Shown piece after piece: positions 27,001-42,000 of a DNA stretch of 64,000 nt (position 1 is the first letter of the stretch; each line of letters opens with the position of its first letter). The DNA comes from Candidatus Izemoplasmatales bacterium (GTDB lineage Bacteria > Bacillota_I > Bacilli_A > Izemoplasmatales > Hujiaoplasmataceae). The position numbers were made by a program. Location of the stretch: contig JBFXGX010000002.1 of the NCBI GenBank assembly GCA_050177605.1, positions 1 through 64,000 on the forward strand. Direction: 5' to 3'.

Positions 27001-30000
27001 ATTTAACATTAGTTATTACCAAGAAATAAAAAAATCCATCTCAAATGATGAATTCATTCTGTATTATCAACCGATTGTCGATATTAAGACTGGTAGAATG
27101 ATTGGACTTGAATCACTCTTACGTTGGAACCATCCAACAATGGGTATTTTACCTCCTGGAAAGTTCTTAAATGTTATGGATTTAACTGGAGACATTACCT
27201 GGTTCGGTAAATGGGGCTTTGAAAAAATCGTTGGACAGTATCAGTTATGGAAGAAAAAATATAAAATTAGAGATTTATTTATTTCTACCAACCTTTCTCC
27301 TAAACAATTAGTGATGGAGAATCTAGCAGATGATTTTCACAACATCGTTAAAAAATATGAATTTCCTGCAGAATCATTCTGCTTAGAGATCATTGATTAT
27401 TATTCGATTATTCGTAATCCAATTGCTCTTCAAAATATCACTGAATTCCGTCGCTACGGTTTTAGAATTGCTATTGATGATTTAGGCGATCAGTTTGAAA
27501 TACTTGAAGATATGACAAGAGTCAAAGCAAATATCATCAAGATTTCGCGTGAAGATGTGCTTAAGATTATGAATGGATTCCAAGAAGAACAATCCATTAC
27601 CAAGGCTATCCTTCTCGCTCAACAAAACCAAAAAGTGGTTGTTGCGGAAGGAATAGAAGACGAAAACATGATTAAAGCAATGGCTGAACGTGACATTCGT
27701 TTCATGCAAGGGTACTTTTTCTCTCAACCCAAATCTGTTGAGGATACAGAAAAGATTTTTAGAAGTTCTCCATGGAATGCGGATGAATTCGCTCGTATAA
27801 CTAAAAATTAAAAAAAGGCAAGCTGCGGCTTGCCTTTTACTTTGGTAAAAATAATCCTTTATTTAATATTTTCATAGCTTCATCTGTGACATAATCAATA
27901 TACGCTTCATCAACATTATCTTTAAATAAAACCTGAAGACCACAAAAGTTCGCTATCCCCATAAGGACATAAGAAGCAGTTTCTAAATCAATTTCAGGAC
28001 GAATTTCACCAGTCGCTAAATGCTTTTTTAAATGATAGATATAGGACTCAGCAAAACTTTGATAATATTCTCTAAAGATTTCTTGATCAACAAACAAGGA
28101 TTCCCAAACGACTTTATAAGCAAGGGGATCCTTTTTTACATACTGGAGGAATGACTTAATCCCAGCACGTTCCATATCCTCTCTTCTTTCAAGTCCTTGA
28201 ATAGCTTTCGAAGAAGCATTTCGAATGGACACTCTGTATTGATCTAGAAGATATAAATACAGCGCAAGCTTGTTATCGAAATAGATATAAAAAGTTCCAG
28301 CCGCCACTTTTGATTTTTCAATAATATCATTAATTGAGGTTGATTGATAGCCATTCTTAGAGAATAACTTTTTTCCTGTGGATATAATTTTATTAAACGT
28401 TTTTTGACCGACTTTTGTTTTCGGCACTCGATAATTATTTACAGACATGTCTTATCACCAACATCATTTTAACCCAAAGATAAAAAAAAGACAAGAGATA
28501 TTTACAATGTTCTAGACGCCATACATAGGTGAATAAAGTTTCATATATCAAAATCGTGATAGCGCTTTCTATTAAAAATCCCGTTTTTTAGCCAAATATC
28601 GCACTTAAACATTATTTAGTAGGTATATGGCGTATATTTTCAAAAACTGAAAAAAACTATTTTTGATTGAAAGCGCTTGACATTTATTTCATAGTCGATT
28701 AAAATACAATCAAGATATGAATAAATATTCACATATTTTTATTGGTTTTGAAATGATCAAAAGCTTAAGCAAATCGATGCTTAGGCTCTTTCATATGAAA
28801 AAGGGAGGTTCTTTATGAACAAAAAAGTTTTTATTGTTGGTGCATTGCGTAGCCCCATCGGAAGTTATTTAGGTGCCTTAAAAGATACGCACCCATCGGA
28901 TTTTGGATCACAAGTTCTTTCAAAATTACTCGAAGTTACAAACGTACCTAAAGATAAAATTACTGAAGTTATTGTTGGAAATATTCTTCCAGCAGGAATT
29001 GGGCAAGGAATCGCAAGACAAATCTCCATTAAAGCAGGAGTTCCAGATAGTGTGCCAGCGTATTCGCTGAATATGGTCTGTGGTTCAGGGATGAAATCGA
29101 TGATGAACGGATTCATGGGAATTCAATCTGGCTTTTCCAGTATTGTCGTCGCTGGTGGCGTTGAGTCAATGAGTAGAACACCTTATCTTGTACCTGGAAA
29201 AGTACGTGATGGTGTTAAAATGGGCGACCTCACTTTAACTGATCACATGATTGGTGACGCTTTAACTGATGCATTTGGAAATATGCATATGGGAATTACC
29301 GCAGAAAATATTGCAAATAAATACAATATCTCAAGAGATGAACAAGACCATTTTGCGATGAACTCTCAAGAAAAAGCAATTGCGGCAATCGATGCGTTAA
29401 AATTTAAAGATGAAATTTGTCCAATTGAAATTAAAACAAGAAAAGAAACAATTCTTTTTGATACAGATGAGTATCCTAACAGAACAACATCTTTTGAAAA
29501 ACTTGGTAAACTAAGACCTGCTTTTGTAAAAGACGGAAGTGTTACCGCAGGAAATTCAAGTGGAATTAACGATGGCGCAAGTTTTACAATCTTAGCAAGT
29601 GAAGAAGCAGTGAAAGAAAATAACTTACCAGTATTAGCTGAAATTATCCAAATTGGACAAGGCGGGGTTGATCCTAATTTTATGGGTATGGGTCCTGTGC
29701 CAGCCATCCGCGATGTTTTACTTCGTGCAAATATGAAACTTTCAGAAGTTGAATTAATTGAACTCAATGAAGCTTTCGCAGCTCAAAGTATTGGCGTTGT
29801 AAAAGAATTAAGTTTAGAACATGGCGTAAGCGAAGAAGATATCTTCAAAATCACGAACGTGAATGGTGGAGCGATTGCCCTAGGCCATCCAGTAGGTGTC
29901 AGTGGAAATCGTATCGTTGTGACACTACTAAATGAAATGATCAAAAGAGATTTACATATAGGACTAGCAAGTTTATGTATCGGTGGCGGTATGGGCACAG

Positions 30001-39000: not shown

Positions 39001-42000
39001 ATAGATGGTGAAGGAAAACCGCTGATTATATTAAATGGAATTATGATGTCAACAAAATCTTGGCAACCATTTATTCCTTCCTTAAAAGAGTATTTTAAAG
39101 TGATTCGACTTGATTTTTTAGATCAAGGCCAATCGGATAAACTTGTTGGCGCGACTTACACGCAAACATTACAAGTTGATTTATTAGCCGCTTTTATTTC
39201 CTTTTTGAATTTAGATAAAGTCAATCTTTGTGGTATTTCATATGGTGGAGAAGTGGCACTAGGATTTGCGACGAAATATCCTCAGATGGTGAATCGGCTT
39301 ATGTTATTTAATACAACCGCATATACAAGCCCTTGGCTTCAAGATATCGGTCGTGGATGGATTGCTGCAGGGAAAACAAGAGATGGCAAACATTATTATC
39401 AAACAACCATTCCTGTCATCTACTCACCAACTTTTTATGAACAAAAATTAGATTGGATGAAAAAAAGAGAACAAGTTCTGATTCCTGTTTTTTCAAATCC
39501 AGTCTTCCTAGATCAAATGGAAAGACTTACCTTGAGTGCAGAGAGTTATGATGTTCGCGACCACCTAGATTTAGTGAAAGCTCCGACAATGATTGTATCT
39601 GCAGAACAAGATTATTTAACTCCAATGGAAAATCAAGAATATTTGCATCAACATATTGAGAATTCTCATCTCGTAAAAATTCCTTTTGCTGGACATGCAT
39701 CTATGTATGAGAAACCACTCTTATTTACCTCATTTGTCATTGGCTTTTTTGGTGTAAAAGACACTATTTATCCTATATAATAAAGAAAGGTATTTTTTGA
39801 TATGGAAAAAAAGTATGTAACAATCGATAATCATGAACAAGTTGCGTATGTTGAAAAAGGGAAGGGCTCAAAGACATTACTCTTAATCCATGGCAATTTC
39901 TCTTCTAGTATTTATTATCAACCTTTGTTTGAACGTCTACCTGAAGATGTACATGCGATTGCGATGGATTTAAGAGGCTATGGTGATACCTCTTATAAGA
40001 ATCGTGTATTATCTTTAAAAGACTTTGCTAAGGATGTTAAATTATTCATGGACAAAATGAATATTGAGAAAGCTTTTGTCTGTGGTTGGTCTTTAGGAGG
40101 TGGTGTTGCGATGGAACTTGCAGCACATTATCCTGAAAGAGTAGAGAAACTAATCCTACTAAATTCAACAACGCATAAAGGTTATCCTGTGTTTAAAAAA
40201 GATGAAACAGGGAAGATGATTGTTGGTTCTGTTTATAAAGATGCGGATGAAATGGCAAATGATCCTGTTCAAGTAAAACCATTGCTAGATGCTTTAAATG
40301 GAAAAAACTTTGCTTTTGTTAAATATATCTTTGATGTAACAATTTATACAGTTGGAAAACCAACGGATGAGCAAACGATTCTATTTATTGGCGAATCCTT
40401 AAAACAAAGAAACTTGGCGGATGCCGATTTTGCACTCGCTAGCCAAAATATGGGTGATACGCCTTCTTTCTATAAAGATGGTGAAAGAACGATTCATCAT
40501 ATTACGATGCCTGTTCTTCACATTTGGGGGGATAAAGACATCACTGTGCCTGAAATGATGATTCAAGATAATTTGAATGCGATGAAACAAAATTCAACCT
40601 ATATCAAATTTGAAAACTGTGGTCATAGTCCTTTGATTGATAAACCGGACGAATTGACAAAAGCAATCTTAGATTTTATTCAATAAGGTCTCCTTTTCAT
40701 ACTTAGCCTAACATACAACTATTTTTGTCAAGAGGCTAAAATGGCTAAAAATAGGCTGTTTTAGCCTCTGCAACAAAAATATTAAAAAAATATTAAAAAA
40801 ATTGAGCGAAAGTTGTTGACAAAGAGATTTGACTATTATATAATGATGTCGTAAATAGCAAAACTAGGGAAACCTAGTGACGCAAAGCTATAGGGCCTTC
40901 GCAAGATGGTAGCCAGTTGCCGTTATCTTATTTAAGATGAGGGCATTTTTTATTTCATAGGGTTATTTTATCCATTAGTGAGTAAAGAATGCACAAATCT
41001 TCAAAGGGTAGTGGCTTTTTTTTATAGCCAACCCGGACCTAAGAGGGAGGGAATGCACTTTGGTATGAGTACAAAAGTTAAATTAGCCGAACGAGTCGTA
41101 TATGCTTCCAGAGCTACGAGAATAGCTAAGGCTAGTCGCTTAGGAATCATCGTAAGTGCAGTACTAACTTTTCTGATCTTCGCAATATCATATTATGGAG
41201 AGGTCGTCGGAAATTTCACATTCAGCGTTGATAGATTCGCAGAAGAAGCTGGAATAACAATTTACGACAATTCAATTACAAAGAATTACACATCAAGACT
41301 TGCCTCAGCCAAAGTAGATAATGCAGACGGAATGACTGGATATTGTGGTACAGAATACACTACATTCCCAGTTGGACATGAGTTGTGTGTCCCAACCGAT
41401 GACGTTGTTACAAGCGTGGATGGATCAAACAATGGAACATCATATCTTGCCTACACATTTTATGTAGAGAACGCAGGAGATGCTACTGTTGATCTTACCG
41501 CAACCATTAAAATCATCTCCGCAACGAAGGGCGCAGATCAAGCCATTAGGGTCAGAGTGATTATCGATGGGGTAGGAACCACTTACGCAGCAAGACAAAC
41601 GGATAAAGGTGTTGCTCCGGGGGAACTAGAACCGCTTACAGAAGCATTTTACGCTCTCACTACCGTTATGTATCAAGAGTATTACATGTTCAGACCAGGC
41701 GATGTAAAAAAAATAACCGTTCTGCTCTGGTATGAAGGTGAAGACGCTGATCACAATCAAGACATTGTTGGCGGCGGTGTAAAACTAGAGATGGACATTT
41801 CCGTTTCCTACGTTTATGAGCTCGAATAGATCTTACTAGGAAAACAAAGAAACACAAGACAAAAAAACAAAAAAAAATAAAAATCCAAAAGGGGAAAAAA
41901 TTATGAAAACATTAAGAAACAAAGTTATTCTTTCAGCAGTCGTATTAGCTTTCGCATTAATCGCAACAATCGGTTCAACTTATGCATGGTTCACAGTATC

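Follow-up and report, generated by a model that had tools for sequence, protein, structure and literature searches.

The window analysed here is the whole 64-kb stretch of DNA from a contig of a Candidatus Izemoplasmatales bacterium, a wall-less anaerobe. A check of its ORFs located an 11-gene operon and a divergent tetR gene, and the genes behind the survey's finding of such an arrangement proved to be real. The 11 co-directional ORFs span 28815–40686, and their intergenic gaps range from an overlap to 84 nt. Overlapping contigs in run X1, possibly the run from which this DNA came, cover the stretch at even depth, and a second run, X2, covers all 30 bins. The features are as follows.

27837–28448, minus strand: divergent gene for a TetR-family repressor (PF00440), 30% identical to its counterpart at the head of the module in the Bacillus cereus group
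28525–28546, no strand: the operator palindrome again, in a second and weaker copy close to tetR (repeats I2/D2)
28677–28705, plus strand: candidate sigma-70-type promoter, a consensus match only (11/12 matches)
28715–28736, no strand: palindromic operator just behind the -10 box, putative TetR site (repeat search)
28815–30020, plus strand: thiolase (TIGR01930, 450.8 vs 240.55)
30035–30757, plus strand: FabG/PhaB-like SDR, putative (R)-3-hydroxyacyl-CoA dehydrogenase (PDB 4NBT full-length, E 9e-116; Asp37)
30789–31811, plus strand: PRK06840 KAS III-fold enzyme, putative acyltransferase or ester-thiolase (Cys118, His267, His295-x4-Asp300)
31813–32919, plus strand: LivH-type permease (PF02653)
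32923–34005, plus strand: LivM-type permease (PF02653)
33962–35392, plus strand: LivG-type ATPase (NF008449 match at residues 218–475 only; N-terminal extension of ~210 aa); its start may instead be the ATG at 33986
35394–36137, plus strand: LivF-type ATPase (NF008626; ATG at 35394)
36189–37571, plus strand: lipoprotein substrate-binding protein of the type 1 PBP fold, with a Thr-rich linker (PF13458)
37656–38966, plus strand: family I CoA-transferase of the 4-hydroxybutyrate type (PDB 3EH7, E 9e-100)
38959–39780, plus strand: serine alpha/beta-hydrolase hyd1, Ser94 (PDB 4Q3L, MGS-M2, E 2e-87)
39802–40686, plus strand: B. thuringiensis PhaZ-type hydrolase, Ser97/Asp246/His275 (NF050089, 337.5 vs 300; PDB 8YNV full-length, E 1e-71)

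A loose version of the operator lies between tetR and thl in 27/29 relatives, and two further copies stand upstream of maoC-bcd-etf on contig C3. The ETF, acyl-CoA dehydrogenase and R-specific hydratase genes that had been noted together on this contig are indeed adjacent there (maoC-bcd-etfB-etfA), with glpK and a Hydrolase_4 esterase gene flanking the etf genes. From the common predicted operator, we infer that maoC-bcd-etf is co-regulated with the module. The genome has nine strict operator matches, six of them unexplained or inside a repetitive ORF, and the chance expectation is about four by our own arithmetic. A generic palindrome scan upstream of bcd in nine relatives returned a single clear site resembling the operator, plus two candidates that overlap, and was insensitive enough to miss the source genome's own sites.

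The module is conserved in Izemoplasmatales, Acholeplasmataceae and other Bacillota, and part of the set occurs in haloarchaea. Orthologs had previously been counted in 30 of 40 family genomes; the conservation holds, and the count is now 42 of 61 including the source genome (G000), based on hydrolase matches with E ≤ 1e-20. Twenty loci were fetched from the 41 other genomes with a hydrolase match, picked mostly for long contigs. All 11 genes are in the same order in 16 of them (one ends at the contig end), one lacks the importer and CoA-transferase, and three are solo paralogues (~42% identity). The smaller sample of four had shown the same picture, with one order in three loci and the fourth lacking the importer and CoA-transferase. 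The best 80 related loci belong mostly to Izemoplasmatales, Acholeplasmataceae and similarly labelled records. Among cultured bacteria, Mariniplasma anaerobium, which has the hydrolase (P0112), and a Thermoanaerobacter are candidate carriers of the module.

The PRK06840 family was detected in 52/61 family genomes, in 29/351 other Bacillota and on haloarchaeal plasmids. Within 8 kb of PRK06840 in 31 Bacillota loci, a CoA-transferase or acyl-CoA synthetase is encoded in 28, a Liv importer in 25, an SDR or MaoC in 21, a hydrolase in 17 and a thiolase in only five. The genes for MaoC, hydrolase, synthetase, Liv and PRK06840 are clustered in two haloarchaea, and the aerobic versions of the module use an acyl-CoA synthetase. 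A literature search found no publication describing the module or the PRK06840 enzyme.

The thiolase is the single thiolase match among the genome ORFs. The SDR has Asp37 at the end of beta-2, and Asp is found there in 91 of the 92 aligned rows, the lone exception being the FAS FabG of the genome. An Asp at this position marks an NAD-type cofactor site in SDRs, and we infer from the sequence that the reductase is NAD-linked. It falls below the cut-offs of the PhaB models (247.8 vs 302.1 for TIGR01829; also NF042966), and thus has neither the HMM score nor the NADP-type site of PhaB. Its apparent orthologue 4NBT (FabG), which we take to be an NADH-preferring Acholeplasma laidlawii enzyme, was solved as a stand-alone enzyme.

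The genome shares a thiolase, a FabG/PhaB-like SDR, MaoC, Bcd-Etf, a 4Hbt-type CoA-transferase and kamA-kce-kal-atoDA (on contig C27) with R-route 3-hydroxybutyryl-CoA metabolism (PhaA, PhaB, PhaJ/MaoC) and clostridial butyrate and lysine fermentation (PMC3994512). Apart from the SDR features above, it differs from these systems in lacking Crt and a full-length Hbd, and in that the genes in the window stand together with those for an ABC importer, hydrolases and PRK06840. No crotonase was detected in the 61 family genomes (controls were positive in 11/14) and PF02737 gave only weak matches in the source genome (20–25 bits), so the link between acetoacetyl- and crotonyl-CoA must be the R route. 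Bcd was found in only 9/41 relatives, and the butyrate branch is missing from most of them.

The thiolase and SDR probably also serve lysine fermentation. Kal is encoded in 57/61 family genomes, usually with maoC within 2 kb. The operon could even consist of two parts, with thl-fabG as the lower lysine pathway (crotonyl-CoA to (R)-3HB-CoA to acetyl-CoA), and with the importer, KAS and hydrolases taking up some other compound, a small ester or amide (an acylated sugar, lactone or acyl amino acid), and feeding its acyl part into the same pathway. Two genomes (G006 and G008) that keep thl-fabG without PRK06840, and one locus (L205) with tetR-thl-fabG-kas only, are consistent with such a division. 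However, three of the five KAS-less genomes examined have no thl or fabG match though Kal is present, and in records from aerobic Bacillus and haloarchaea PRK06840 stays associated with Liv, an activator and MaoC or an SDR, with no lysine genes seen near the module. We regard the two-part operon as distinctly unlikely.

The survey had reported PF07167 to be absent and TIGR01836 to be found in 0 of 31 genomes, and likewise neither model found a PHA synthase in the source genome (89% complete). PF07167 is a weak test, matched in only 1/14 control genomes, and TIGR01836 is a useful one, over cut-off in 5/29 outside genomes; by the TIGR01836 cut-off, a PHA synthase was found in 0/34 genomes of the window's phylum. 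Among 63 genomes selected because they carry PRK06840 or the hydrolase, only five have a PHA synthase over cut-off. A complete FAS-II is encoded elsewhere in the genome, so the module is not a housekeeping fatty-acid synthase, and its role as a replacement for fatty-acid synthesis was ruled out.

The PRK06840 protein scores 493.6 on NF005308 (cut-off 315) and is below the cut-off of the FabH model TIGR00747 (113.7 vs 292.1), and a genuine FabH is located in the FAS cluster. His295 occupies the FabH Asn site, and the protein lacks the Cys-His-Asn triad of KAS III. All PRK06840-like alignment rows have His and Asp at the His-x4-Asp columns, which the FabH of the genome lacks, and the Cys column is variable among the B. 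cereus-like ones. The triad of ChlB3 is Cys113/His296/Asp301 (PMC9573744), and the matched ranges put His295/Asp300 on ChlB3 296/301. The enzyme is similar to ChlB3 (PDB 7EQI), CerJ (3S3L) and DpsC in its thiolase fold, catalytic Cys and His-x4-Asp pair at the FabH Asn site, and most PRK06840 members, like DpsC, also retain His at the FabH His site. It differs from them in having no ACP or polyketide cluster nearby and a catabolic context, and its sequence similarity to 7EQI is weak (E 8e-9), with FabH proteins scoring better. Because of the ChlB3/CerJ-type pair, the PRK06840 enzyme is probably an acyltransferase and not the condensing enzyme that it had been called earlier.

CerJ, with the same residue set, forms esters (PMC9573744), and the order thl-SDR-acyltransferase mirrors phaA-phaB-phaC. 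The thiolase and SDR might thus make (R)-3HB-CoA for a Cys-His-Asp KAS-fold enzyme that, with no need of PhaC, links (R)-3HB to an acceptor or into oligomers, while the hydrolases and importer recycle the product; most carriers do lack PhaC. Synthesis is nevertheless highly improbable, given the NAD-type SDR, the importer and acid-activating enzyme as the most constant partners (and thiolase in so few loci), and the presence of PhaC in the B. cereus-like carriers as well.

All five importer proteins are below the LivK/H/M/G/F equivalog cut-offs (34.7 vs 477 for the binding protein), and a second Liv-like set lies on contig C10. The top structural match of a binding-protein model, built with 46 sequences (pLDDT 94), was the fatty-acid binder 4N03 (Z 34.9, 19% identity), with hydroxybenzoate and valine binders within 1 Z, and 4N03 was also the top sequence match. 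The CoA-transferase is below the TIGR03948 (But) cut-off (280.8 vs 674.8). A fatty-acid binder would suit lipid scavenging, in which fatty acids, monoglycerides or the longer 3-hydroxy fatty acids of lipid A, rhamnolipid or lipopeptides are imported, hydrolysed and activated, and the KAS-fold enzyme passes the chains to membrane synthesis or R-specific shortening. The acyl-CoA synthetase of the aerobic versions and the glpK and Hydrolase_4 genes on C3 point the same way, as does a secreted Lipase_2 protein encoded in 2/31 Bacillota loci. In the PDB this protein is matched best by lipases, with PhaZ7 reaching just E 5e-4. Yet 4N03 shares just 19% identity and ties with the other binders, the CoA-transferase is of a short-chain type, saturated chains cannot be oxidised with crotonase absent and Bcd rare, and FAS-II is complete; we therefore consider lipid scavenging unlikely.

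The Lipase_2 protein was rejected as the missing depolymerase here, with no match in the source genome and only three weak partial matches in 101 genomes of the order. The survey had identified no secreted depolymerase, and searches of the source genome with PF10503, TIGR01840 (by cut-off) and the lipase-like query P0292 were also empty. A lipoprotein-type esterase is over the TIGR01840 cut-off in four relatives.

The NF050089 score reported for the PhaZ-type hydrolase (337.5 vs 300) was reproduced by profile search, and the B. cereus-group homologue, with 40% identity to it, scores 414.8. Compared with 8YNV (8YNV/8YNW presumably being PhaZ of B. thuringiensis), the triad and cap motifs are kept, with W96 preceding S97 and both D246 and H275 present. 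Neither this hydrolase, whose N-terminal hydrophobicity is low, nor hyd1 has a visible signal peptide. Trp before Ser is the rule for lipase-box intracellular depolymerases (PMC2666664). In its score, triad, Trp and lack of signal peptide, the predicted protein resembles an intracellular nPHAscl depolymerase, but no PHA synthase was found in its host to make granules for it to mobilise. The B. cereus-group phaZ stands alone, 1.5 Mb away from the module in one record, whereas the predicted PhaZ-type gene in the window sits in an import operon. The PhaZ-type gene is an accessory to the module, as it is present in 10/31 Bacillota loci, and it is absent from the module in four clear loci of genus g10. 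As 50/399 of the phylum's small genomes pass NF050089, and some of these carry several paralogues, a pass does not establish the substrate, and caution is needed with the NCBI label 'intracellular PHA depolymerase', passed by many genomes of a lineage where no PHA synthase was found. hyd1 is an apparent orthologue of 4Q3L, which we take to be a brine-metagenome esterase (MGS-M2) and which was also solved as a stand-alone enzyme; no printed link between 4NBT or 4Q3L and this module was found.

The best explanation, to which we give about an even chance, is that TetR represses a catabolic module whose substrates are short (R)-3-hydroxyacyl esters, most probably oligomers of 3-hydroxybutyrate set free from the PHB of other cells. 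The lipoprotein and Liv-type ABC transporter would take up either the ester or its monomer; in the cytoplasm, the two serine hydrolases would cut the ester to (R)-3HB, and the CoA-transferase would activate it with acetyl- or butyryl-CoA as donor. The NAD-linked SDR would convert (R)-3HB-CoA to acetoacetyl-CoA and the thiolase would yield two acetyl-CoA, leading to acetate and ATP, while the electrons may go to crotonyl-CoA reduction via the co-regulated MaoC-Bcd-Etf (to butyrate, in the source genome and in a minority of its relatives), or else to hydrogenases. PRK06840 would most likely transfer acyl groups from ester oxygen to CoA or back by way of an acyl-Cys, for example in the thiolytic cleavage of an activated dimer, and the thiolase and SDR could also provide the lower part of the pathway for lysine-derived crotonyl-CoA.

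This 3HB-ester reading is supported by the NAD-type reductase, the operator before maoC-bcd-etf, the absence of crotonase, the activating and R-step enzymes beside PRK06840 across phyla, the NF050089 pass and full-length 8YNV alignment of the PhaZ-type hydrolase, the rarity of PHA synthase among carriers, and the TIGR01840 esterase in four relatives. It is weakened by the patchy PhaZ-type gene, the fatty-acid binder as top match of the binding protein, the lack of a secreted depolymerase here, the rarity of Bcd, and the lipase-like matches of the Lipase_2 protein. It is also weakened because the depolymerase family has one validated seed (PMC2666664), whose deletion merely delayed PHB breakdown (PMC4908106). 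The survey had proposed import and fermentation of 3HB oligomers with a substrate resting on one HMM. The proposal stands as the best single reading and now has support beyond that HMM, but with a probably different role for PRK06840, an accessory PhaZ-type gene, and a thiolase and SDR that fit lysine too.

If true, this reading would give a function to an unassigned KAS III family. It would also name a route, with PRK06840 as its marker gene, by which PHB and bioplastic fragments are turned over anaerobically in sediments, digesters and landfills, in organisms so far not associated with such turnover. It would further suggest a scavenging module as the origin of the Bacillus PhaZ family; the base of a quick hydrolase tree is poorly resolved and gives no direction of origin. 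A bolder and rather doubtful extension casts PRK06840 proteins as CoA-dependent ester thiolases, central to a pathway of both bacteria and archaea in which imported PHB fragments are cleaved without hydrolysis and the energy cost of activation is spared. Many anaerobes that do not make PHB would then recycle the storage polyester of dead cells, including Izemoplasmatales, which are known mainly as DNA degraders. The parts of the module are all small soluble proteins, two of them with apparent solved orthologues, which makes the 3HB-ester reading directly testable.

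The module is real, conserved and uncharacterised, and may be a variant of known 3-hydroxybutyrate (3HB) catabolism. It lies on contig C2 of a 1.94-Mb genome (89% complete) whose proteins have their closest named homologues in Izemoplasmatales, and its GC content resembles that of its flanks. The locus is laid out as follows.

27837-28448, minus strand: tetR, facing the 11-ORF run
28525-28546: second, weaker copy of the palindrome
28677-28705: predicted promoter (consensus match 11/12)
28715-28736: palindrome (putative operator), just after the promoter match
28815-40686, plus strand: 11 ORFs in one direction, encoding a thiolase (thl), an SDR, a PRK06840 KAS III-like enzyme (kas), LivH, LivM, LivG, LivF, a binding lipoprotein, a CoA-transferase and two alpha/beta-hydrolases (hyd1, then PhaZ-type)

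From the observed gene content, residues and synteny we infer every enzyme activity of the most coherent reading, to which we give about an even chance: (R)-3HB esters would be imported and cut by hydrolysis or thiolysis, CoA would be transferred onto the freed acid, NAD-linked oxidation and thiolytic cleavage would follow, and electrons would pass to butyrate or H2. A literature search of mostly non-subscription papers, main texts only, returned no paper on the module or on PRK06840, and the accessible text of a study treating Izemoplasmatales as DNA specialists contains neither 'butyr' nor 'polyhydroxy' (PMC8289736).

In 27 of 29 relatives the tetR-thl interval contains a loose match to the operator. 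The strict form occurs nine times in the genome (about four expected by chance, by our arithmetic); one copy is the module's own site, and two more sit no further than ~120 nt upstream of the likely start of maoC-bcd-etfB-etfA on contig C3, where ETF, acyl-CoA dehydrogenase and an R-specific hydratase indeed cluster, as the survey had stated. As a link between the C3 genes and the module, these predicted copies are stronger evidence than co-occurrence. Another strict match, at window position 7650, falls in the 5' end of a minus-strand ORF (7048-7668), ~100 nt before a plus-strand ORF starting at 7748. On contig C20 (L225, 1428-4880), an operator-like palindrome that may be a chance match lies ~130 nt upstream of the gene for a lipoprotein of 1150 aa that carries Listeria-Bacteroides repeats and DUF4886. 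The flanks are kept in many relatives. Upstream (15759-27811) they encode a surface protein of 2413 aa and two GGDEF-EAL proteins; downstream (40978-47148) they hold two secreted-looking proteins without Pfam matches, a gene resembling signal peptidase (weak PF00717) and a pair of ATPase-like ORFs. The module appears to be inserted within a c-di-GMP/surface-protein region.

The PhaZ-type hydrolase was matched in 42 and PRK06840 in 52 of the 61 family genomes. Gene order is conserved among relatives, as previously claimed: among 20 loci from the 41 other hydrolase-positive genomes, picked mostly for long contigs, 16 kept the 11-gene order, one lacked importer and CoA-transferase, and three held solo paralogues. 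Acholeplasmataceae carry the same gene set, partly rearranged. In the phylum around genome G457, the PRK06840 cut-off was passed by 29 of 351 genomes. Within 8 kb of all their matches (31 loci, some ending at contig ends), an activating enzyme was found in 28 (CoA-transferase 23, acyl-CoA synthetase 5), a Liv importer in 25, an SDR or MaoC in 21 and any hydrolase in 17; PhaZ-type (10), thiolase (5) and Bcd (4) were least frequent. Among the named organisms with proteins in these clusters are Thermoanaerobacter, Caldanaerobacter, Proteinivorax, Alkalicella and Bacillus. In a B. cereus-group record the order is tetR-synthetase-maoC-kas-NHL protein-Liv with PhaZ 1.5 Mb distant, and both haloarchaeal plasmids examined (of 10 with a match) cluster maoC, hydrolase, synthetase, Liv and kas. 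The partner counts and these versions together define a constant core: PRK06840, an importer, an acid-activating enzyme and an R-type step. The PhaZ-type gene is an accessory part: the module stops at hyd1 in four loci of genus g10. Aerobic versions carry a beta-propeller protein after kas (NHL-repeat in Bacillus and Brevibacillus, PQQ-type in Halobaculum), at these positions:

L154, 10987-12852: beta-propeller gene
L156, 13010-14911: beta-propeller gene
L152, 13155-14348: beta-propeller gene

The SDR gave an ungapped match to PDB 4NBT, which we take to be an NADH-preferring Acholeplasma enzyme. An Asp at the end of beta-2 confers NAD preference in SDRs; Asp37 ends beta-2 here, and Asp stands there in 91 of 92 aligned rows (lone exception, FAS FabG). 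By these rules the module SDR would prefer NAD. None of the 61 family genomes gave a crotonase match in a search that detected it in 11 of 14 controls, PF02737 gave only weak partial matches in the window's genome, and MaoC was matched in 52 of 61, so acetoacetyl-CoA and crotonyl-CoA would be linked only via (R)-3HB-CoA. FeFe-hydrogenases (three matches) may offer an alternative electron sink. Kal was found in 57 of 61 family genomes, mostly ≤2 kb from maoC, and the family is predicted to ferment lysine as well; thl-fabG is kept without PRK06840 in two of five genomes tested. It is thus probable that both pathways use the thiolase and SDR, which alone are no pointer to PHB. Set against Bcd (just 9 of 41 relatives) and the crotonase result, the Kal count suggests that lysine is oxidised to acetate via the R-specific route, with H2 released. 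Contig C27 carries a lysine-fermentation cluster (L008, 4149-12032), maoC-atoD-atoA-kal-kce-kamA with B12 aminomutase-like genes. 4Hbt-type transferases are described as possible terminal butyrate transferases (PMC3994512). A reading in which the lower part of lysine fermentation is coupled to import of some other ester we consider rather unlikely.

The reported NF050089 score of the last hydrolase was reproduced (337.5 vs cut-off 300). This 294-aa protein aligns at full length with PDB 8YNV (E 1e-71; next unrelated match 4e-20) and retains Trp96-Ser97, Asp246 and His275; Trp preceding Ser is described as a mark of the B. thuringiensis-type depolymerase family, with one validated seed listed (PMC2666664). 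Deletion of B. thuringiensis phaZ, originally annotated as an enol-lactonase (PMC7236355), is reported to delay, not abolish, PHB breakdown (PMC4908106). In the window's phylum, 50 of 399 genomes have proteins above the NF050089 cut-off, several paralogues in some cases, so this label by itself cannot establish the substrate. A quick tree, unresolved at its base, places the B. cereus-group enzyme close to in-module enzymes from other Bacillota (identity up to 54%) and the window's enzyme in a supported clade of sequences from its own phylum. Hyd1 matches PDB 4Q3L (E 2e-87), termed a metagenomic hydrolase (PMC6138646). N-terminal inspection revealed no signal peptide in either hydrolase. One module (L192, genome G147) has two hyd1-type hydrolases beside a tandem of three PhaZ-type ones, which suggests substrate diversification.

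The catalytic residues given for ChlB3 are Cys113, His296 and Asp301, and CerJ transfers malonyl onto a sugar hydroxyl (PMC9573744). His295 of the PRK06840 protein occupies the position of the FabH catalytic Asn, and His295 and Asp300 fall on ChlB3 296 and 301, judged from matched ranges rather than residue-by-residue alignment. Both are present in every PRK06840-like row among 111 aligned homologues; at the His267 column, Lys, Phe or Gln sometimes takes the place of His. The protein scored below the FabH cut-off (113.7 vs 292.1), and the true FabH lies in a complete FAS-II cluster. The family is also present in archaea, which to our knowledge lack ACP. The condensing role given in the survey is thus the less likely one: the failed cut-off, the His-Asp pair and the ACP-less archaea favour acyl transfer over condensation, with DpsC-like condensation as a possible alternative. 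Several Bacillota loci (L166-L170, L173, L177) have a second, divergent KAS III-like gene nearby, with Cys, Gln and Tyr in the triad columns.

The modelled binding protein (pLDDT 94) has as its top structural match the fatty-acid binder 4N03 (Z 34.9, rmsd 4.1, 359 aligned, 19% identity), with hydroxybenzoate and valine binders tied within 1 Z. The module might scavenge lipid or longer hydroxy-acids, a possible but unlikely role. In the window's LivG, an N-terminal stretch of ~210 aa (33962-34610), basic and rich in Lys, precedes the ABC domain; LivG of some relatives (L022, L025) is ~260 aa, without it. A PHA synthase above the TIGR01836 cut-off was present in 5 of 29 outside carriers but in none of 34 genomes from the window's phylum, in keeping with its claimed absence from the lineage. 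Synthesis independent of PhaC we consider very improbable. Searches of the window's genome for a secreted depolymerase returned nothing with PF10503 or a lipase-like query, and with TIGR01840 only a cytoplasmic esterase (28.5 bits). Lipoprotein-type esterases above the TIGR01840 cut-off occur in 4 of 121 genomes of the order (L229-L232), and the complete module is present in no fewer than three of these four (G013, G035, G040); this lends slight support to polymer supply, the family being broad. A Thermoanaerobacter-type module encodes a secreted Lipase_2-family protein (L159, 11899-13110) with a long but weak PhaZ7 match (E 5e-4), a candidate extracellular depolymerase or lipase.
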